The translations under genes were made by a program, and so were the position numbers. A stretch of DNA of 64,000 nt from a virus, in the IMG/VR virus record IMGVR_UViG_3300028422_001962, positions 1 through 64,000 of that record. One strand, 5' to 3'. How positions within the stretch are numbered: position 1 is the stretch's first letter; each line of letters begins with the position of its first letter. The notes beneath the pieces were generated by a model, which was not told the DNA's origin, did not search any database, and was given only the letters and a program-made list of their open reading frames with translations. Positions 40,709 through 47,843 of the stretch are shown piece by piece.

Positions 40709-41230
40709 TCAGATGTAGTCGTGCAGGAGCTCTCGCAAAGTGTCAAATGCTTTTTTCTTTTTGTAGTTGATAGTGGATTGCTGAGAAATGCCCATGATGG
40801 CAGCTATCTCTCGTTCCGTCTTATCCTGAAGCAAAAGTTCACAGATGCGGCGACCATCAGGGTCGAGCTTGTCCAGCTTGCATAGAAGGGCGTCCAGTAG
40901 TTCGCGCTCTTCCAAAACTGACTGAGCGCTGGGAGAATCGTCTGGTAAGTCATCGAGCCAGCTTTTTTCGTTACCATCCTCGTCCGAAACGGTGTAGTCA
41001 AGGGAAAGCTCATCCCCACCTTTGCGAAAACGGCAGGTGCAGCAGTCCATGTCGCAGAGATAGCGCTTGCTTGCAGGGCAGACACAGCGGCCATGTTCTT
41101 GTTGCCTACGACGATAGGCATTGATGTCACGGTAATAGTTGTCATAGTCGATTTTGCTGATAGACACCCATTGGTGCAGGTCTTTGAGGTAGATTGCGCG
41201 TTCGGTGGGTTGATTGTCTTGGGTTTTCAT
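40709..41230 (-). CDS. Sigma-70 region-4 (ECF-like) phage transcription factor
   Basis: CVC..CDMDCCTC, LSLDY, TEREIAAIMGISQQSTINYKK; positional paralog of 13388-13849. Confidence 0.85.
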   Translation of the reverse strand: MKTQDNQPTERAIYLKDLHQWVSISKIDYDNYYRDINAYRRRQQEHGRCVCPASKRYLCDMDCCTCRFRKGGDELSLDYTVSDEDGNEKSWLDDLPDDSPSAQSVLEERELLDALLCKLDKLDPDGRRICELLLQDKTEREIAAIMGISQQSTINYKKKKAFDTLRELLHDYI

Positions 41231-41453
41231 TTAGATTTCCTCCTGTGATTTGAATTGCGTGAGCAATCGCAGGGAGGAAACATGTTGAAAAATGTAAAAT
41301 TTACCATTATGTCATTGAATTTCGGTTTACTACGTGATATAATGGTTTAGTTGGGTTTGGTGGGAGTTACGAAAGTAAGTAACCTGCACCGGCTTTGCTG
41401 TATCCAGAAGCAATAAAAAATGCCCCTGCGATTTCTCACAAGGACATGAAATT

Positions 41454-41507
41454 GTTCGCCGAGTTCGCCAGCCATACTTCGTTTGGTTGCTTGGAGTTCG
41501 CCGAGTT
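41454..41507. promoter_or_regulatory. 12-bp direct repeat, candidate Xis/HTH-binding sites
   Basis: GTTCGCCGAGTT at 41454 and 41496 in the divergent intergenic region. Confidence 0.5.
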
Positions 41508-41534
41508 AGTTTTTTTGAAATATGGTGAAAATCT

Positions 41535-42467
41535 ATGACAAACACTTTAAAACAGCGCCTTTGCGGCGGTACTTTTTTCACATTATTTTTACGCGCCAGA
41601 AAGCCCTTGCGTGGAGCAAATGAATATTATGCAGGGACTCCAGAGCCATATTCCGAACCCATAGCTCTGTTTGCCTTATCTAAGGTGATAGTTCCTGATT
41701 GGAAGAGCATATTTGTATACGCCGATAGCACAGTTAGTGGTAATACTTCGGAATATAAGACCTGTAACAATGAAGGCGGCTCAATATACCCTTTTGGTGA
41801 TGGTGCAGCGCTGACTGCATTCAATGCACGAATCAAAGAAAACTATCCTTCTGTATTAGCCGAAATGTGCAAGGTTATAGGCTTGCTCGTTGACACCGGC
41901 AGCATGAGAAAAGATGAGCGCTTTGTTAAAGAGCTTTTAGCCTTGATTGCAGTCGATGATTCCATCGGGGATAGTCAACCTTTCTTTGCTCTGGAAAGCG
42001 GCGATACTATAACAAAATCCGATCTCCTCAAAGCAACAGGTGTTTGCTTACAATCATTTTTATTAGGTGTTTGGCATTTCGCAGTAACCCGTTCGGAAAA
42101 GAACACTTTTGGTAAGGAAACAATCGATCTATGGTGTCCTTCAACCGGGGGTGGAAAGCGCGAATACAAAGGTAACCTTGCAAACCTCATAACAAGGAAT
42201 ATCACGCTAACCTATCGTGAACCATTTGAGGAAAGTGCAGATTCCGAAATTGTTGATGAGCCCTTGGTGGATGAGCCTATGACAAGTGATGAACCTCATA
42301 GCGAGGAACAATCGACAGAAAAAGAACCTGCCGCATCCAATTTGACGCAGCAGGTTATAAACAACAATCCGACATTCTTCAATTTCAACATATCAGGCAA
42401 TAACAACAGCTTCTATAACAGGGTAGATACAGTAAATATTAAGAACGGAGGGCAAAAAGATGAGTGA
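41535..42467 (+). CDS. Hypothetical protein A with acidic linker and C-terminal N-rich amyloid-like motif
   Basis: RLCGGTFFTL N-terminus; E/D/P linker; ends FNFNISGNNNSFYNRVDTVNIKN. Confidence 0.75.
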   Translation: MTNTLKQRLCGGTFFTLFLRARKPLRGANEYYAGTPEPYSEPIALFALSKVIVPDWKSIFVYADSTVSGNTSEYKTCNNEGGSIYPFGDGAALTAFNARIKENYPSVLAEMCKVIGLLVDTGSMRKDERFVKELLALIAVDDSIGDSQPFFALESGDTITKSDLLKATGVCLQSFLLGVWHFAVTRSEKNTFGKETIDLWCPSTGGGKREYKGNLANLITRNITLTYREPFEESADSEIVDEPLVDEPMTSDEPHSEEQSTEKEPAASNLTQQVINNNPTFFNFNISGNNNSFYNRVDTVNIKNGGQKDE

Positions 42468-43086
42468 GAAACTTCAGCCGATCTCATCGGCCTTCCTTCC
42501 GTCGAACGGCGCATCGGCTAATATAACTCTACCCGGCGACGGGAACACATTGATTGCCCAGGCCAATGTGGTAAACATGAAAAGCGTGTACATTCCTGTT
42601 GTTCAGGCAAACGGTGTAACACTTCCGACAAGACGGACTGTGAATGAGGATTATTATAATCTTTTCGTTATTGGCGATGAAACATTTACTGGAGGATATT
42701 TTATCGTACCGAAGAAGTGTGCATTAACTGAAAGCATAGCGCCAGAATTGAAAGCCTTGTATGCTAAGCTCGATATGAATGCCATTGCAGCAATCAAAAC
42801 TTTCCCAGCCATATTCGCAAGCAAAAATCATCAGTATTGTTGTGCGGGAGTGAATCAAGAGGCATACCTCGGATTTGTAAATGATATAAGCATTCAGGAC
42901 AACGGTATTAAGGTTTCTTTTCATCTACTGTATGCAATTCCCCAGAGAAGATTGAATGAACTTGCTTGTGAGATTTCTATTGACTGTGCTTCAGCGTTCA
43001 ACGAATTCGACAATACGCATTGGACAATTAAGCGGATAAACATTATAGAAAAACTGCGTAAAGCAGGCATAGACACACTCCTTTAA
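42460..43086 (+). CDS. Hypothetical protein B with N-terminal amyloid-like motif
   Basis: ITLPGDGNTLIAQANVVNM then globular domain YYNLFV...EFDNTHWTIK; overlaps gene A by 8 bp. Confidence 0.75.
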   Translation: MSEKLQPISSAFLPSNGASANITLPGDGNTLIAQANVVNMKSVYIPVVQANGVTLPTRRTVNEDYYNLFVIGDETFTGGYFIVPKKCALTESIAPELKALYAKLDMNAIAAIKTFPAIFASKNHQYCCAGVNQEAYLGFVNDISIQDNGIKVSFHLLYAIPQRRLNELACEISIDCASAFNEFDNTHWTIKRINIIEKLRKAGIDTLL

Positions 43087-43134
43087 GATAAATAGCCGCA
43101 CAGAAACTCGATATACACATTATGGAGGTTCAAT

Positions 43135-43335
43135 ATGAGTAACGAGAAAGAAAACAGTGTTCCTGAAAAATGGGTAAACCTTGAGGATGTTGCAGAACAT
43201 CTCAGCGTTAGCAAGGACACCGTCCGCACATGGATGCGGGAAGGTAAACTCCCCATTAACAAAGCTGGGAAGAGATACAAGTTCAAAATTTCCGAAGTTG
43301 ATGAATGGGTACGAAAAGGAAAAATCAAAGATTAA
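43135..43335 (+). CDS. Excisionase-like HTH_17 DNA-binding protein
   Basis: WVNLEDVAEHLSVSKDTVRTW..K.GKRYKFKISEVDEW. Confidence 0.88.
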   Translation: MSNEKENSVPEKWVNLEDVAEHLSVSKDTVRTWMREGKLPINKAGKRYKFKISEVDEWVRKGKIKD

Positions 43336-43392: not shown

Positions 43393-45669
43393 ATGACGCC
43401 AAAAATGTCATCCGCAATCAAAAAAATAACGCTCAATACCCCCACCTTCAACGGAGACGTGGTTGAGCCGACATTTATTAATTTCTTTTACGGCAGAAAC
43501 GGCGCTGGCAAATCCACGATAGCACAGGCTATCGGCGCAAATACCGGCCTACTTTGGCAGGACGGCAAGTCAGCGGCGGATTATGATATTTTGGTTTATG
43601 ACCAAGACTTCATCAACAACAACCTGCAGAATTACGGGAACCTCGCAGGCGTGTTTACTGTATGTGATACAAATATCGAAATTCAAAAACAGGTGGAACA
43701 GAAAACGGCTGAAAGAGCCTCATTTGATGAGCAGTACCGTACTCTTACCACTGCAGCGGGAAGCAAACAGGATGCTATGACCGCCTCTTTGAGCACTTTT
43801 CAGAATGCTTGTTGGGAAAAGTCGAAGTCGATTCGGGACGCATTCGATGAGGCGATGAAGGGCAAAAAGCGAATTAACTTGTTCGCAGAATCTGTTTTAT
43901 CCGTTCCGACACCCGCTGAGCATGACTTAGCCGCGCTGAAAAAAATGTACGATATTGCATTCGATACTTCAGCAACAGTATATAAGCTCTTTTCCAGAGC
44001 TGGCAGCTCCACCACATATGGAAAGTTACCCGGAAAAGACCTCATGGATAAAGCCATTGTAGGTAGTAGTGAGTCAACATTCACGGCATTTATGAAGGCC
44101 CTTCATGCAACCGACTGGGTACGGCAAGGACACGATCACTATGTGGCTGGAGCCGACGGAAAATGTCCGTTCTGCCAGCAGAAACTACCGGCGGGTTTTG
44201 ATGATGAAATTGCGGCTTGTTTTGATGCACAGTACCAGCAAGACATTGACGATATTACGGAATTTCAAGCTACATATTCACGTGAGACGGGTGCCATTTT
44301 AGACACGCTCCAAACAAACCTGCAGGATGTGCTTGCTACCGTAGATTTGGTGGAATACAAGGATAAAATTGCACTATTAAAAAGCAGTATCGAAATCAAC
44401 AAGCAGCGCATCTCCGGTAAAGTTAAGGAACCCACCTCTATCGTGGCGCTTGAGGATACGGATTCACTGCTCATAGAAATAGGCACTCTCATTGATGATA
44501 TCAACCGCCAGATCAAGGCCAACAACGATGTCGTAAATGACAAGAAGGCGAAAAAGGCAGCTTGTGTCAATCAGGTGTGGGAGCATCTTGCTTTCATGTT
44601 GAGCCGTGATGTCGCTACTTATAAGGCTGAACAGGCAAAGCTAAAAAAAGAAGCTGATGACCTGACAGCCAAAGCGACTGCTGCACGTCGCGCTTTTAAT
44701 GCCGCAACGGGCGATATTGCCGAACTTAACAAACAGGTAGTCAATACCCAAGCAGCTATTGCCAGCATAAACGCTTTACTAAAAGACTCCGGATTTCAAG
44801 GCTTCAGCCTCCGTGAGAAGACGGGAGTTCCGAATGTGTATGAGGTTGTACGTGAAGACGGAAGCATTGCGGTAAAGTTGAGTGAAGGTGAGCGTAATTT
44901 TATTGCATTTTTGTACTTCTACAACCTTGTTCGTGGCAGCCATAGCAGCGAAGAAGTAAAGGACAAAATCGTGGTTATCGACGACCCGGTTTCCAGTATG
45001 GACAGCAACACACTGTTTATTGTTAGTGCTATCATTCGAGAAATGGTCGAAGTTTGCTATAACAACACCGACTATCGCGACAACACGGTTCAGGGCGACT
45101 ACATCAAACAGATATTCATTCTGACGCACAATGTGTATTTTCATAGGGAGATTACCTATCGGCAGGTCAGTCGCTACAAGAGCGTGTCATTTTACATGAT
45201 ACATAAAACAGACAACGTGTCGACAGTCAAGCTCTGTGACAAAGAGAGTGAAGGATGTCCGACTGAAAAAGAAAATTACAACCCGGTTCAAAACTCATAT
45301 GCGGCTCTGTGGGATGAATTCAGAGTATTGAAGTCCACAATACCGCTGCTCAATGTAATACGGCGTATTTTGGAGTATTATTTTCTGCAGCTTTGCGGAT
45401 ACGAGGGAACGGACATCCGTAAGGTTGTTTTGGAAAAGAACAAAGATAAATTTGTCACCCCGGTGGAAGGCGGTCAGCCGGATTATGAGAAATACCAGCT
45501 GGCTTCGTCGATGCTGACATATATCAATAACCCGCAGGGTATCAGCGATGGTTTGAACTATGTCGAAGATTGCGTCGATGCCGGGCAATACAAAACAGTT
45601 TTCAAGCTTATCTTTGATTCGCTTGGACAGATACAGCATTACAATATGATGATGGGGCAAGAGGCATAA
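43393..45669 (+). CDS. RloC-like AAA_13 ABC-ATPase (zinc hook, HEPN-like tail)
   Basis: YGRNGAGKST, CPFC, LSEGE, IDDPVSSMD, LTHN, RRILEYY. Confidence 0.82.
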   Translation: MTPKMSSAIKKITLNTPTFNGDVVEPTFINFFYGRNGAGKSTIAQAIGANTGLLWQDGKSAADYDILVYDQDFINNNLQNYGNLAGVFTVCDTNIEIQKQVEQKTAERASFDEQYRTLTTAAGSKQDAMTASLSTFQNACWEKSKSIRDAFDEAMKGKKRINLFAESVLSVPTPAEHDLAALKKMYDIAFDTSATVYKLFSRAGSSTTYGKLPGKDLMDKAIVGSSESTFTAFMKALHATDWVRQGHDHYVAGADGKCPFCQQKLPAGFDDEIAACFDAQYQQDIDDITEFQATYSRETGAILDTLQTNLQDVLATVDLVEYKDKIALLKSSIEINKQRISGKVKEPTSIVALEDTDSLLIEIGTLIDDINRQIKANNDVVNDKKAKKAACVNQVWEHLAFMLSRDVATYKAEQAKLKKEADDLTAKATAARRAFNAATGDIAELNKQVVNTQAAIASINALLKDSGFQGFSLREKTGVPNVYEVVREDGSIAVKLSEGERNFIAFLYFYNLVRGSHSSEEVKDKIVVIDDPVSSMDSNTLFIVSAIIREMVEVCYNNTDYRDNTVQGDYIKQIFILTHNVYFHREITYRQVSRYKSVSFYMIHKTDNVSTVKLCDKESEGCPTEKENYNPVQNSYAALWDEFRVLKSTIPLLNVIRRILEYYFLQLCGYEGTDIRKVVLEKNKDKFVTPVEGGQPDYEKYQLASSMLTYINNPQGISDGLNYVEDCVDAGQYKTVFKLIFDSLGQIQHYNMMMGQEA

Positions 45670-45737: not shown

Positions 45738-47843
45738 ATGGTTGATAAGCAAATAATAGATGCAATGTGGGATGATTCCCCCATTGATGTGTCTACAGAG
45801 GTAAACTTTATCTGGTCGATCGCAAACAAGCTGCGCGGTCCGTACCAGAGCGATAAATATAAGGATGTCATCATACCGATGACCGTCATCCGCCGTTTTG
45901 AGTGCGCTCTTGCACCTACCAAAAAGGCGGTCGTTGATCAGTTTAATGCCAATCCGAGCTATCCGCCGAAAGCGATGTATCGCATCTCCGGCTTTCAGTT
46001 CTACAATACCAGCGGTTATGATCTCGCTGAGCTGGTGAACGATGCCGACCACATTGCCGCCAATTTCAAAAGCTATATTCAGGGCTTTTCACCTAATGTG
46101 CAGGAAATTCTGCTGTCAGCCGAAAAGGGTCTGGATTTCTATAAGCAAATCGACAAGATGGATAAAAACAATCGCTTGCTCAGTGTTGTCAAGGCGTTTT
46201 CAGAACTCGACTTGAACCCTCGTACCATCGACAACGTGAAAATGGGATACATATTCGAGGAGCTCATACGTAAATTCTCTGAAAATGCCGAGGCTGGCGA
46301 CCACTACACGGGCAGAGATATCATTAAGACGATGGTCAATATTCTGCTGGCAGAGGGCTGCGACGACATTTTTGATGATGGCAAGGTTATCACGATACTC
46401 GACCAAGCCTGCGGCACAGGCGGTATGCTTTCTACTGGCTATAACTTCATTAAACGTTATAACCCCTCTGCCGACGTCCGGCTTTTTGGGCAGGAAATCA
46501 ACCCGGAATCTTATGCGATGTGCCTTTCCGAAATGCTCATTAAAGGTCAGAACTCCGAGAACATCTGTTATCAAGACACCATGAAAGCCGACTGCTTCAA
46601 GGGAACAGCGATGCGTTTCGTGCTCGAAAATCCGCCGTTCGGTACTGCGTGGGGTGGCAAGGACGCTGCCGAGGGCGTTGAAACTGCAGTAAATGATGAA
46701 TTCAAGAAGGGCTATGACGGACGCTGGGGTGCGGGGCTTCCCGGTTCCGGTGATATGCAGATGCTGTTTTTACAGTCTGCAATTGACAAAATGGACAAGC
46801 ATAACGGACGCGCTGCCATCATTCAAAACGGCAGTCCTCTGTTTTCCGGTGGCACTGCTTCTGGCGAGAGCCAGATCCGCCGCTGGCTACTGCAAAGCGA
46901 CCTGATTGAAGCAATAATTGCGCTGCCGACAGATCTTTTTTACAATACCGGCATCGCTACATATATTTGGGTGTTATCGAAAAATAAGCGCGCCGAGCGC
47001 AAGGGTAAAATTCAGCTCATTGACGCTTCCAGCATTTTTCATAAGCTCCGTAAAGCTCTGGGGAACAAGAAAAACGAGATTGCCCCGGAAGACCGCTCCG
47101 ACATTACACGGTTGTATGCGGACTTCAAAGAAAACGAGCTATGCAAAATCTATAACAACGAAGAATTCATTTATCGAGAGTATACCGTGATGCAACCGCT
47201 CCAACGTAGCTATGCCATCACTGAAGAACGCATCCAGCAGATGCTTTCAAAAGGCGCACTCAGTTCTTTATATGACGAGGGCAAAGTCAGCGAACTGGAA
47301 AATTCCGAAGAAGAGCTGTCCGGCAAGGACGTAAAGAAGTTGGAGAACTATCAGAACAACAAGCCTGTGTTTGATAGCATAGTTGCCGCACTGGAAGCCG
47401 CCGTTTCTGAGGAAGTCTACCTTTCCCCGGCTGCGTTTCTGCCTGAGGTAACAAAGGTACTGTCTTCCGCAACTGCAGACAAGAAGCTAATTGAGAAAAT
47501 TGCGGACGGTCTTTCCGTCATGGATAAGAACGCTGAAATTCAGCGTGACAGGAAGGGCGAAATCATCTATGACAAGGAATCGAAGGATACCGAAATTGTA
47601 AAATATGAGGAGGACATTGACACCTATATGGCGCGTGAAGTCCTGCCGCACATCCCCGATGCGAAAGCATTCTTCGAGGAAGATTTGAGCAAGAAAAAGC
47701 CGGTCATCAAGACCGGTGCGGAGATTCCATTTACCCGCTATTTTTACAAATATCAGCAGCCTACCCCCAGTGAAGAGCTGGAGGAACGCTTTACTACGCT
47801 TGAGCAATCAATCAATGAGCGCGTAGCAAAGCTGTTCGATTAA
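45738..47843 (+). CDS. hsdM: Type I RM methyltransferase
   Basis: FIWSIA..LRG, GDHYT, DQACGTGGML, ENPPFG, FYNTGI. Confidence 0.95.
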   Translation: MVDKQIIDAMWDDSPIDVSTEVNFIWSIANKLRGPYQSDKYKDVIIPMTVIRRFECALAPTKKAVVDQFNANPSYPPKAMYRISGFQFYNTSGYDLAELVNDADHIAANFKSYIQGFSPNVQEILLSAEKGLDFYKQIDKMDKNNRLLSVVKAFSELDLNPRTIDNVKMGYIFEELIRKFSENAEAGDHYTGRDIIKTMVNILLAEGCDDIFDDGKVITILDQACGTGGMLSTGYNFIKRYNPSADVRLFGQEINPESYAMCLSEMLIKGQNSENICYQDTMKADCFKGTAMRFVLENPPFGTAWGGKDAAEGVETAVNDEFKKGYDGRWGAGLPGSGDMQMLFLQSAIDKMDKHNGRAAIIQNGSPLFSGGTASGESQIRRWLLQSDLIEAIIALPTDLFYNTGIATYIWVLSKNKRAERKGKIQLIDASSIFHKLRKALGNKKNEIAPEDRSDITRLYADFKENELCKIYNNEEFIYREYTVMQPLQRSYAITEERIQQMLSKGALSSLYDEGKVSELENSEEELSGKDVKKLENYQNNKPVFDSIVAALEAAVSEEVYLSPAAFLPEVTKVLSSATADKKLIEKIADGLSVMDKNAEIQRDRKGEIIYDKESKDTEIVKYEEDIDTYMAREVLPHIPDAKAFFEEDLSKKKPVIKTGAEIPFTRYFYKYQQPTPSEELEERFTTLEQSINERVAKLFD

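Follow-up and report, generated by a model that had tools for sequence, protein, structure and literature searches.

Fungi and animals are known to use amyloid signalling. In the HET-S/NWD2 pair, and in the RHIM proteins RIPK1 and RIPK3, the signal passes via a common short prion-like motif, and the core tetrad of RHIM follows the pattern [IV]-Q-[IVLC]-G. Among the fungal NLR–effector amyloid pairs, both split and all-in-one (fused) architectures occur.

In bacteria, the Bell/NLR pairs with the motifs BASS1–10 place one copy of the motif at the C-terminus of the effector and the other at the N-terminus of the adjacent receptor. Their motifs are reported to be enriched in Q, N, G, V, and I, depleted in K, P, and L, and closer within a locus than between loci; in Firmicutes, these architectures were reportedly rare or missing (Dyrka et al. 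2020, bioRxiv 10.1101/2020.01.06.895854). The abortive-infection pair Bab/Agp of E. coli ECOR25 carries the BASS11 motif, and its amyloid formation and defence were shown; the motif is reportedly modular, occurring with TIR, NACHT, NB-ARC, and other domains (Ibarlosa et al., bioRxiv 10.1101/2024.11.07.622273). With Bab/Agp, there is a precedent for amyloid signalling in defence that involves no NLR, and BASS11 shows that the wider BASS class can do without one. A precedent of another kind is PUA-Cal-HAD, a defence filament triggered by m6-dAMP, whose PUA domain reportedly polymerises after sensing a nucleotide derived from the methylome (bioRxiv 10.64898/2026.01.15.699771).

The window, i.e., the whole stretch of 64,000 nucleotides analyzed here (viral record IMGVR_UViG_3300028422_001962), contains two overlapping genes, A and B (Table 1), which we read by analogy as an amyloid-signalling-type sensor/effector pair of the Bab/Agp (BASS11) kind, with a probability of roughly 0.55. 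As in Bab/Agp, the genes are adjacent and lie in a prophage defence island, and a motif of ~20–25 aa that ends a small helical protein, the putative effector, recurs at the N-terminus of its partner, which is no NLR. The differences are that the A domain has 230 aa and no detectable Bell/HeLo likeness, that the family occurs in Bacillota and their phages, and that amyloid formation and defence are putative for A/B. With the Bell/NLR pairs, A/B shares a motif that closes one protein and opens the product of the adjacent gene, and a likeness within loci that exceeds the likeness between loci; the N/Q/G/V/I-rich composition of their motifs is matched in part; one relative (L075/P0348) has the tag and the B domain before an NB-ARC NTPase. 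Unlike in those pairs, the window B has neither a STAND NTPase nor a repeat sensor, no Bell domain was detected, and the family resides in Firmicutes. PUA-Cal-HAD, and VcaM4I and McrB-N with their PUA-superfamily readers of modification-dependent nucleases, resemble the locus in the predicted PUA-like reader, the defence context, and the position beside adenine methylation. With PUA-Cal-HAD, the proposal for A/B also shares ligand-induced polymerisation as the activation step, whereas the window B has no fused enzyme and coupling would go via a peptide tag instead of a preassembled enzyme scaffold. No description of the A/B pair was found in the literature searched; members could be among the motif-bearing proteins tabulated with Dyrka 2020 and Ibarlosa 2024.

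Table 1. Positions of the features of the A/B locus within the window.
Feature	Positions	Strand	Remarks
Promoter-like site TTGAAT-17-TATAAT with TG	41315..41343	+	10/12 matches; before a ~190-nt leader
28-nt imperfect palindrome/hairpin in the leader	41420..41447	+	candidate operator or RNA element
Gene A	41535..42467	+	ORF of 310 aa
A, globular all-helical domain	41535..42224	+	residues 1–230; presumed effector
A, acidic disordered linker	42225..42338	+	residues 231–268; pLDDT about 30
A, pre-motif (QQ..NNNP type), C-terminal tag, and stop	42339..42467	+	residues 269–310; conserved
Gene B	42460..43086	+	ORF of 208 aa; 8-nt overlap with A
B, N-terminal tag	42514..42591	+	residues 19–44; heads HMM E 6.8e-08
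B, predicted PUA-like (ASCH/EVE/YTH-type) globular domain	42631..43083	+	residues 58–208
Small HTH_17/excisionase-family DNA-binding protein (mad1-like)	43135..43335	+	59–92% identical across loci
AAA_13 (RloC/PrrC-like ABC-type) ATPase	43393..45669	+	PADLOC candidate PDC-S06
HsdM-like N6-adenine methylase, start of type I restriction system	45738..47843	+	context

The ORFs and the residue count confirmed both overlapping genes and both motifs exactly where the preliminary description had placed them, the tags being residues 284–302 of A (42384–42440) and residues 22–40 of B (42523–42579). The overlap in the ORF listing is ATGAGTGA, and GGAGG stands 8 nt 5′ of the ATG of gene B. The linker of A is, as had been claimed, acidic and modelled as disordered. 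The RHIM label given to the motifs did not hold, since neither tag of the window contains an [IV]-Q-[IV]-G core; a core pattern of the RHIM type occurs in a minority of the relatives (5/39 tails and 7/39 heads, on both sides of 2 loci). From HET-S/NWD2 the pair differs in having no HET-s-type pseudo-repeat, no NLR, and no detectable HeLo.

Aligned without gaps over 19 residues, the A and B tags share 4 identities (G, N, V, and N) and conservative pairs. Smith–Waterman comparison of the last 45 aa of A with the first 62 aa of B in this window gave a score of 39, which was attained in 26 of 5000 composition-preserving shuffles of the pair (22.9 ± 4.4) and by none of the 89 natural 62-aa windows of neighbouring proteins (maximum 30). 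The likeness of the tags in a single window pair is modest and only suggestive; it is the relatives that decide whether tag matching across loci is real.

For the co-variation analysis, 67 of 80 loci were usable and were reduced to 40 representatives with <80% identity in the globular part of B; the other 13 lacked an upstream ORF of at least 100 aa ending at B, had fewer than 25 aa of head, or ran into the contig end. In the 40 non-redundant loci, the mean score of the cognate A-tail/B-head pairs was 54.9 versus 31.4 ± 1.7 in permuted pairings, and it was attained in none of 20,000 permutations of partners. Non-cognate tail/head pairs averaged 30.8 (sd 11.6), with 7.1 identities over 18.9 columns as compared with 10.7 over 24.3 in the cognate alignments. 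The cognate partner ranked first for 13 of the 40 tails and 12 of the 40 heads, and among the top five for most. At locus L001, whose proteins are 87–90% identical to the window pair, the cognate partner ranks seventh of 40 for its tail. Several tag types switch jointly in both genes (IPNYGT, NQYG..TQI, VNQ.AEKIVN, SGGNN.F, and NY..V.NQ..I.I..M.G). No tail/head match was found at the visibly disrupted locus L068, which was kept in the co-variation test and left out of the shuffle/composition, alignment-identity, RHIM-pattern, codon, and HMM analyses. The preliminary description had proposed a paired architecture of C- and N-terminal motifs and had named conservation and co-variation in homologous pairs as the check; both were found across the 40 loci, which confirms the architecture as a conserved one whose two sides evolve together.

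The tags are 38–43% identical among relatives versus 17–20% for the linkers, and for A the mean pairwise identity is 48% in the globular part, 17% in the linker, and 42–43% in the tail. Asn makes up 17.1% of the tails and 15.1% of the heads versus 5.9% of the globular part of B. The tags are also rich in Gly, Gln, V, and T and poor in Leu, Glu, and Arg; P, at 4.7% in the heads, and K, at 5.7% in the tails, are not depleted. The HMM of the tails matched residues 271–310 of A (E 1.1e-14), and residues 283–304 of A were also matched by the HMM of the heads (E 0.009). Against the six-frame ORFs of 497 contigs (3.5-Mb assembly), the tails HMM retrieved A only (next best E 0.7); it misses the B head too, which marks the profile as specific to one side, and weak copies may escape this contig search. 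The tags are disordered in the monomer models of A and of B, a low-confidence hairpin at B residues 34–43 being the sole sign of beta propensity. A complex prediction with two copies of A 262–310 and two of B 1–62 scored 0.08 versus a mark of 0.32; run without controls, it is neutral on binding.

The tag is not confined to one pair of families. Among the 71 loci with upstream sequence, the partner preceding B belonged to the A family in 64 and in 5 to A′, a family unrelated to A with a matching tail. Profile–profile comparison of A and A′ aligned the tail alone (33 columns, prob 87%, E 4e-6), and the reading of A′ as a diverged A was rejected on this ground. In L075/P0348, the tag heads a B-NB-ARC-DUF7779 fusion (NB-ARC, PF00931, E 1.8e-5), the upstream partner of which has a matching tail, and in P0300, it is N-terminal to a DUF6650 domain. 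Such modularity is typical of signalling motifs. The survey of fusions covered all 18 proteins of at least 250 aa among the 150 matches listed of 957. Eleven of these long B-domain proteins were A–B single-chain fusions, and in 9 of the 11, the tag was undetectable with the tails and heads HMMs; one tag was kept in some single-chain forms (P0381, E 3e-4, and weakly P0358 and P0375). Tag loss is expected in such fusions if the tags stand in for a covalent link.

Homologues of A numbered 248. In the AF2 model of A, the block-mean pLDDT was mostly 85–97 over residues 11–230, with dips to 61–70 over residues 21–40 and to 80 over 201–210, and fell below 50 over residues 232–310. The N-terminal hydrophobic helix is highly conserved. 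Searches in Pfam, NCBIfam, and PADLOC gave no match for A, and PHROGs gave noise for A and B alike (E 0.1–0.3). At the structure level, Foldseek against the PDB and BFVD returned nothing at E ≤ 0.001 and the best VIA wide row had Z 3.0, so no fold was assigned, which does not by itself prove the fold to be novel. The best protein atlas scores for A (0.80) fell on unnamed, mostly viral clusters and were at chance level, as were all rows of the PDB sequence profile searches for A and B (spidroin, E 0.04; NDUFA8, E 0.15). A showed no detectable likeness to toxins or to the membrane-targeting domains of the Bell/HeLo type; a distant relation to the latter is possible. That A is the effector is a guess. 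A four-Cys metal site in A was considered and dropped, only C10 and C77 persisting in divergent and fused forms. Sequencing runs with matches showed small shares (0.20 or less), and four runs yielded few contigs of 80–250 nt. Two metatranscriptome contigs fall inside gene A, at 41757–41985 (1 mismatch) and 42002–42168 (0 mismatches); as such libraries may contain DNA, these contigs are no evidence of transcription, habitat, or operon.

For B, 194 homologues were collected, and 957 clusters at 50% identity matched with E ≤ 0.001. Pfam, NCBIfam, and PADLOC gave no family match for B, the PDB gave no relevant sequence match, and the protein atlas gave no usable match for the domain among named clusters. 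The structure searches were more telling. Foldseek ranks 1–6 were YTH domains (prob 0.84–0.95; top E 5.8e-3, prob 0.95). VIA wide placed PH1033 ASCH first (Z 7.3, 119 residues aligned, rmsd 3.4), followed by VcaM4I (6.5), Mmi1 YTH (6.2), McrB-N (6.0), ZmASCH (5.9), and THYN1 EVE (5.3). Among the 11 best VIA rows were 10 that we take to be PUA-like readers of the ASCH, EVE, YTH, or McrB-N/VcaM4I kinds (Z 5.1–7.3, 105–119 residues aligned). Residues 58–208 of B are, in the model, a PUA-like beta-barrel, an assignment at fold level only and with middling Z. Invariant aromatic residues of B are Y66, F69, F81, F119, and W188.

Since the predicted fold is that of PUA-like readers, B looks like a sensor or an adaptor, in agreement with the sensor role assigned to it earlier. 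The earlier suggestion that the B domain recalls domains fused to TIR effectors was borne out by the B–TIR_2 fusions P0335 and P0364 and by an E. coli plasmid TIR protein with a B-like domain. The window B (208 aa) contains no NTPase, the B-NB-ARC fusion being found only in the L075/P0348 relatives, and with no NLR in the pair of the window, the description of the pair as non-NLR stands.

Downstream of the pair, the preliminary description had pointed to an Xis-like HTH protein and a RloC-like ATPase, and both identities are as described. The HTH protein matched PF12728 (HTH_17, E 3.9e-14) and TIGR01764 (E 7.7e-12), and the ATPase matched PF13166 (E 2.2e-123) and PDC-S06 of PADLOC (E 2e-215); the PADLOC match of this ATPase to PrrC (E 1.9e-9) covers residues 490–608 only. 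The cassette order A-B-HTH-AAA_13 ATPase recurs across loci. The proposed link of the pair to these two genes holds in most of the 61 loci with enough downstream sequence, the ATPase adjoining the pair in 48 and the HTH in 46, with at least one of them everywhere. The ATPase is not next door in 13/61 and the HTH is missing in 15/61, so there is no universal third partner, and the idea of the ATPase as an obligatory receptor was dropped. RloC and PrrC, both anticodon nucleases, are associated with restriction systems of type I. As in their loci, the ATPase downstream of A/B fits the family profile PF13166 and precedes hsdM; the A–B pair differs in occurring also without an adjacent ATPase, and A and B are additional genes that, to our knowledge, no description of RloC or PrrC loci mentions. 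The cassette was found in prophage records, and in Streptococcus phage Javan105, the ATPase is annotated ‘ACNase RloC’. HsdM-like copies, 79–95% identical, lie downstream of the cassette in many loci, and N6-adenine methylase systems stand beside it in 33 of 57. The cassette is prophage cargo, usually beside adenine-methylase restriction systems.

Upstream of A, the −10 block of the promoter-like site is invariant in a seven-locus alignment; the promoter scan overall gave no more sites than were found in shuffles. The 28-nt palindrome is near-invariant in 7/7 aligned leaders, in which A is merely 44–87% identical. Rfam assigned no family to the leader, its one sub-threshold sRNA row (E 0.099) lying outside it. 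An ORF of 47 codons (41395..41538), the stop of which overlaps the ATG of A, was rejected as a gene, there being no protein conservation (best E 0.025), and its region is read as leader.

From all this, we infer a mechanism with respect to the cross-beta and templating nature of the tags, the division of roles between sensor and killer, the ligand, and the part played in defence. A and B would form a two-protein sensor/effector module joined by ~25-residue Asn/Gln/Gly-rich, putatively beta-prone tags, each suspended on a disordered linker. Most likely, A and B dock through the matched tag, as amyloid-signalling immune pairs do; direct binding between the tags is very likely, and analogy with those pairs suggests that the tags are amyloid in nature. 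The PUA-like reader of B may sense a nucleic-acid or modified-nucleotide cue or dock on the neighbouring NTPase. Ligand-driven clustering of B would then allow the B tags to form a cross-beta nucleus, and this nucleus would impose its fold on the A tag by templating and switch on the helical domain of A, a presumed growth-arresting or killing effector. The module would probably be an abortive-infection layer beside restriction, because it precedes the HTH and the RloC-like ATPase and, usually, an adenine-methylase restriction system. A fuller version, in which a large and hitherto unrecognised non-NLR amyloid motif family of Bacillota and their temperate phages has the PUA-like B sense a modified-nucleotide/methylome danger signal arising around the adjacent adenine-methylase restriction system, polymerise through its N-terminal tag, and template the tag of the helical killer A, with tag classes diversifying to keep co-resident modules orthogonal, is offered tentatively. 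On that version, no amyloid immune switch would be known with a smaller receptor, and prion-like abortive infection would depend directly on restriction–modification status.

The main rival is a constitutive non-amyloid tether, in which the tags zip into a small, stable intermolecular beta-sheet or a single two-rung unit that holds A and B 1:1. A/B would then be the split form of the single-chain A–B proteins, with no templating, polymerisation, or switch. The co-variation, expected of any specific interface, is in keeping with such a zipper, the 8-nt overlap of the genes suggests equimolar co-translation, and 11 A–B fusions, most of them tag-free, occur among the matches listed; the translational coupling of A and B together with the tag-free fusions would suit a lasting complex no less than a switch. 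The split-versus-fused pattern is, however, also found with true amyloid signalling in fungal and bacterial systems (Ibarlosa et al.). The tag is moreover portable among the unrelated A, A′, B, B-NB-ARC, and DUF6650 proteins, its Asn/Gln/Gly-rich composition is closer to amyloid signalling motifs than to ordinary interfaces, and the lone tag of P0381, and the weak ones of P0358 and P0375, would leave a 1:1 zipper without a heterologous partner. The disorder of the tags in both monomer models also speaks against the zipper. We regard the tether as possible rather than probable.

Two other explanations dispense with contact between the tags. Both tags could track a common third reader, such as the ATPase, the HTH protein, a protease, or a chaperone. 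The usual presence of the ATPase and/or the HTH in the cassette is in favour of such a reader, but neither is universal, and the HTH, far more conserved than the tags, cannot drive their diversification. Tag–tag pairing instead explains why both tags are lost upon A–B fusion, and the search of the 3.5-Mb assembly with the tails HMM retrieved no further tag-bearing protein; a third reader is therefore very unlikely. The likeness of the tags could also be a functionless by-product of DNA duplication, gene conversion, or low-complexity composition. Asn-rich tags do inflate chance similarity, and most matched residues share codons in two loci (13 of 16 in L030 and 9 of 13 in L032). Over the whole set, however, the same codon was used at 179 of 414 identical aligned residues, against 166.6 predicted by codon usage. 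With the choice of codons at these residues near random, tag matching is held at the protein level, and the codon analysis excludes recent gene conversion as its general cause. Shuffles seldom attained the score of the window pair, permutations of partners never attained the cognate mean, and the tags are conserved, unlike the adjacent linkers. This explanation, the least probable of all, is already refuted for the most part.

In bacteria, amyloid signalling has so far been shown functionally for one E. coli pair, and the catalogued motifs lie in NLR/Bell pairs of filamentous phyla. If the reading of A/B as a sensor/effector pair of this type is true, the principle would extend to gut/anaerobe Bacillota and their prophages, across the 957 clusters of B. 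The receptor would be reduced to a reader domain of ~150 residues, and the effector would be one without a known fold. Should B read modified nucleotides, restriction–modification would gain, through the module, a link to an abortive-infection back-up. The orthogonal natural tag classes, together with the tag-free single-chain versions, would make a ready series for setting templating apart from mere tethering. Finally, the finding would annotate two widespread families of ‘hypothetical protein’ encoded beside RloC-like ATPases.

The genes A (presumed effector) and B (downstream, sensor-like partner) overlap by 8 nt, and GGAGG precedes the ATG of B. In A, a globular part is followed by an acidic stretch (residues 231–268) and an Asn-rich tail; B opens with a short leader, directly followed by the matching motif, the head. 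Residue counting placed the two 19-mers exactly where the preliminary description had them. Within the window, tail and head shared 4/19 identities with a Smith–Waterman score of 39, a value reached by 26 of 5000 shuffled controls (22.9 ± 4.4) and by none of 89 natural windows of neighbouring proteins. Judged from this pair alone, the likeness appears modest, a lead rather than a finding.

Features of the A–B cassette and its surroundings in the window
Feature	Position	Size or residues	Remarks
Sigma-70 region-4-like gene	40709–41230 (−)		divergent, ahead of cassette
Promoter-like site	41315–41343		ahead of A
Leader of A	41344–41534	~190 nt	conserved at DNA level
Rejected ORF	41395–41538	47 codons	stop overlaps A ATG (ATGA)
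Imperfect palindrome	41420–41447	28 nt	near-invariant in 7/7 aligned leaders
GTTCGCC repeats	41454, 41463, 41496		two within a 12-mer
Gene A	41535–42467 (+)	310 aa	ORF, co-directional with B
A motif (tail)	42384–42440	A residues 284–302	19-mer, by residue count
Gene B	42460–43086 (+)	208 aa	ORF, co-directional with A
B motif (head)	42523–42579	B residues 22–40	19-mer, by residue count
HTH_17 excisionase-family gene	43135–43335		
AAA_13 RloC-like ATPase gene	43393–45669		
ATPase C-terminus	45400–45669		terminal Q-H-Y-[DN]-M-M-M

The relatives proved decisive. A word-indexed search yielded 248 homologues of A and 194 of B, and a full HMMER scan for B gave 957 clusters at 50% identity, 582 of them with E ≤ 1e-10; neither A, B, nor their homologues belong to a named family of Pfam, NCBIfam, PADLOC, or PHROGs. 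Tails and heads form conserved blocks between variable linkers (mean pairwise identity of 42–43% and 38%, respectively, versus 17% and 20% for the linkers). From species-representative genomes, 80 loci with B relatives were collected, the upstream partner being picked by position alone; 67 had a usable tail/head pair, and 40 representatives were scored. The motifs sorted into visibly distinct classes, with the same class on both sides of each locus. Cognate pairs scored 54.9 on average and non-cognate pairs 30.8 (sd 11.6), whereas permutation of partners gave 31.4 ± 1.7 and at most 39.7 in 20000 trials. Independent divergence after an ancient duplication would make cognate and non-cognate scores equal; the excess thus argues that tail and head evolve in concert. 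Recent homogenisation of the DNA was rejected as the cause of the match, since the same codon was used at 179 of 414 identical aligned residues versus 166.6 expected, with a bias apparent in L030 and L032 only. The one clear non-matching locus (L068) is disrupted, with A truncated and B fused to an ATPase fragment. The conservation and co-variation proposed as a check were therefore found, and the matched tags claimed from the window are strongly supported as a real feature by these comparisons. In three loci, two tandem B paralogues follow one A (L076 1696–2938, L077 1353–2595, and L080 1013–2198); there, the first B alone was checked against the A tail.

Sequence comparisons also show the tag to be portable. 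Upstream sequence was available for 71 loci, and five of these have a partner from an unrelated family, A', whose tail matches its own B; in the profile–profile comparison of A and A', only the last 33 columns aligned (probability 87%, E 4e-6). An NB-ARC/DUF7779 protein in L075 and P0348 begins with the tag and the B domain and looks repeat-like towards its C-terminus; the small ORF upstream of it terminates in a matching tail, an arrangement close to the published effector-motif/motif-NLR layout. P0300 carries a head-type tag (E 6e-6) ahead of a DUF6650 domain. Among the 150 best B representatives, 18 proteins had at least 250 aa and 11 of these were single-chain A–B fusions, with the tag undetectable in nine of the 11; L078 is a further single-chain example. 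Tags present on separate proteins and absent once these are fused are a classic sign of a joining element.

Residues 58–208 of B were modelled as an alpha/beta domain. Nearly all of its best structural neighbours were base readers of the PUA superfamily: ASCH PH1033 (Z 7.3 over 119 aligned residues, rmsd 3.4), the VcaM4I EVE domain (Z 6.5), YTH domains (Z 6.2 and 5.9), the N-domain of McrB in complex with m5C DNA (Z 6.0), ZmASCH (Z 5.9), and THYN1 EVE (Z 5.3). Foldseek ranks 1–6 were all YTH domains. With scores in the middling range, the model supports a PUA-like fold, a claim that covers the fold and not the ligand. The suggestion that this domain resembles ones fused to TIR effectors was correct: P0335 and P0364 combine it with TIR_2 in the order X-B-TIR_2 (E 1.4e-8 and 8.6e-7), P0364 with AbiJ_NTD3 in addition, and a TIR protein of an E. 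coli plasmid starts with a B-like domain. Recurring beside recognised immune effectors and NTPases, the domain behaves as a sensor or adaptor would.

A was modelled as all-helical over residues 11–230 (block-mean pLDDT mostly 85–97, dipping to 61–70 over residues 21–40 and to 80 over 201–210) and as disordered outside them. No resemblance to the helical domain was found among solved structures or viral predicted structures. Its most conserved stretch, an N-terminal hydrophobic helix with invariant L9-C10-G11-G12-T13, recalls, by analogy only, the buried N-terminal helix of HeLo/Bell effectors. An extra helical insert of ~130 aa occurs at the junction of effector domain and tail in A homologues of 416–441 aa (P0172, P0174, P0181, P0185, P0192, and P0213) and in L038 (2128–3282); it is found in both A and A' proteins, and several A–B fusions (P0241, P0300, and P0326) have a similar one.

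The pair lies in a defence island. Among the 61 loci whose downstream sequence reached 3.3 kb or more, both HTH and ATPase genes followed in 33, the ATPase only in 15, the HTH only in 13, and neither in none, which bears out their proposed link with A–B. Where the HTH alone follows, the locus continues into an SNF2-DUF4391-(trypsin)-N6_N4 methylase operon or a type I hsdM/S/R operon. An N6-adenine methylase system was present in 33 of the 57 loci whose downstream sequence reached 6 kb or more. B is encoded in eight phage records. In Streptococcus phage Javan105, A and B (both 'hypothetical'), a 'VrlI-like' HTH, and an 'ACNase RloC' adjoin phage replication genes, and tail and head match one another. 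The recurrent neighbourhood and the phage records indicate mobile-element cargo placed ahead of restriction-type systems, of which the A–B pair itself is the sole constant component. The HTH is 59–92% identical across L001–L079 (26–90% for the neighbouring A and B), also heads SNF2/methylase operons in loci without the ATPase, and scores 54 bits against the MADS mad1 model, under its cut-off of 80. The terminal ATPase motif is conserved in the L032, L038, L046, and L047 copies. The sigma-70-like gene occupies the same position in these loci, adjoining phage replication genes, which suggests a fixed cargo slot in a family of phage-like elements.

The leader of A was kept at the DNA level even where A proteins were just 44–52% identical, and palindrome variants in three loci improve pairing; the leader has no Rfam family. 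The palindrome is a candidate operator for the highly conserved HTH, or an RNA hairpin. The 47-codon ORF is probably not a gene, being unconserved as protein in related loci (best E 0.025).

The tags are Asn/Gln/Gly-rich, terminal, matched, co-evolving, portable, and carried on flexible linkers, and tail and head very probably bind each other. The reading that we favour, at a probability of about 0.55, is that they pair homotypically in a beta structure like those of amyloid signalling: clustered B would nucleate a fold, and this fold, templated onto A, would activate it. The cue that B senses may be a nucleic acid or modified nucleotide, and A may be a killing or arresting effector. Our certainty falls from tag–tag binding to the templating structure, then to cue sensing by B, and finally to A as the effector. 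An instructive precedent for cue sensing is PUA-Cal-HAD, in which the PUA domain is reported to bind methylome-derived m6-dAMP and then to polymerise (bioRxiv 10.64898/2026.01.15.699771). The main rival, a permanent beta-zipper tethering A to B, is possible but rather doubtful: the translational coupling of the two genes and the covalent A–B fusions suit it well, but a few single chains retain one tag (P0381 clearly, P0358 and P0375 weakly), and an unpartnered tag fits an element that associates with itself better than it fits a strict 1:1 zipper.

The closest parallels are the bacterial amyloid signalling (BASS) systems. In layout, composition, and co-variation, A–B matches the BASS1–10 Bell/NLR pairs (bioRxiv 10.1101/2020.01.06.895854) and BASS11 of the E. 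coli pair Bab/Agp (bioRxiv 10.1101/2024.11.07.622273), and by this likeness may work like an amyloid signalling pair, although unlike BASS1–10 it has no NLR and no recognisable Bell domain. Of the 'RHIM/BASS-like' label, the BASS half may hold, whereas the window tags lack the RHIM core; the proposed non-NLR character of the pair was borne out. No description of the pair was found in the literature searched. By analogy, A and B are most probably coupled in the manner of amyloid signalling, within a defence module carried by prophages. Its kind is already known, since Bab/Agp is reported as a non-NLR amyloid defence pair. What appears new is the family of tags, the minimal receptor of PUA-like fold, the fold of the effector, the phylum, and the association with restriction systems and RloC-like ATPases.
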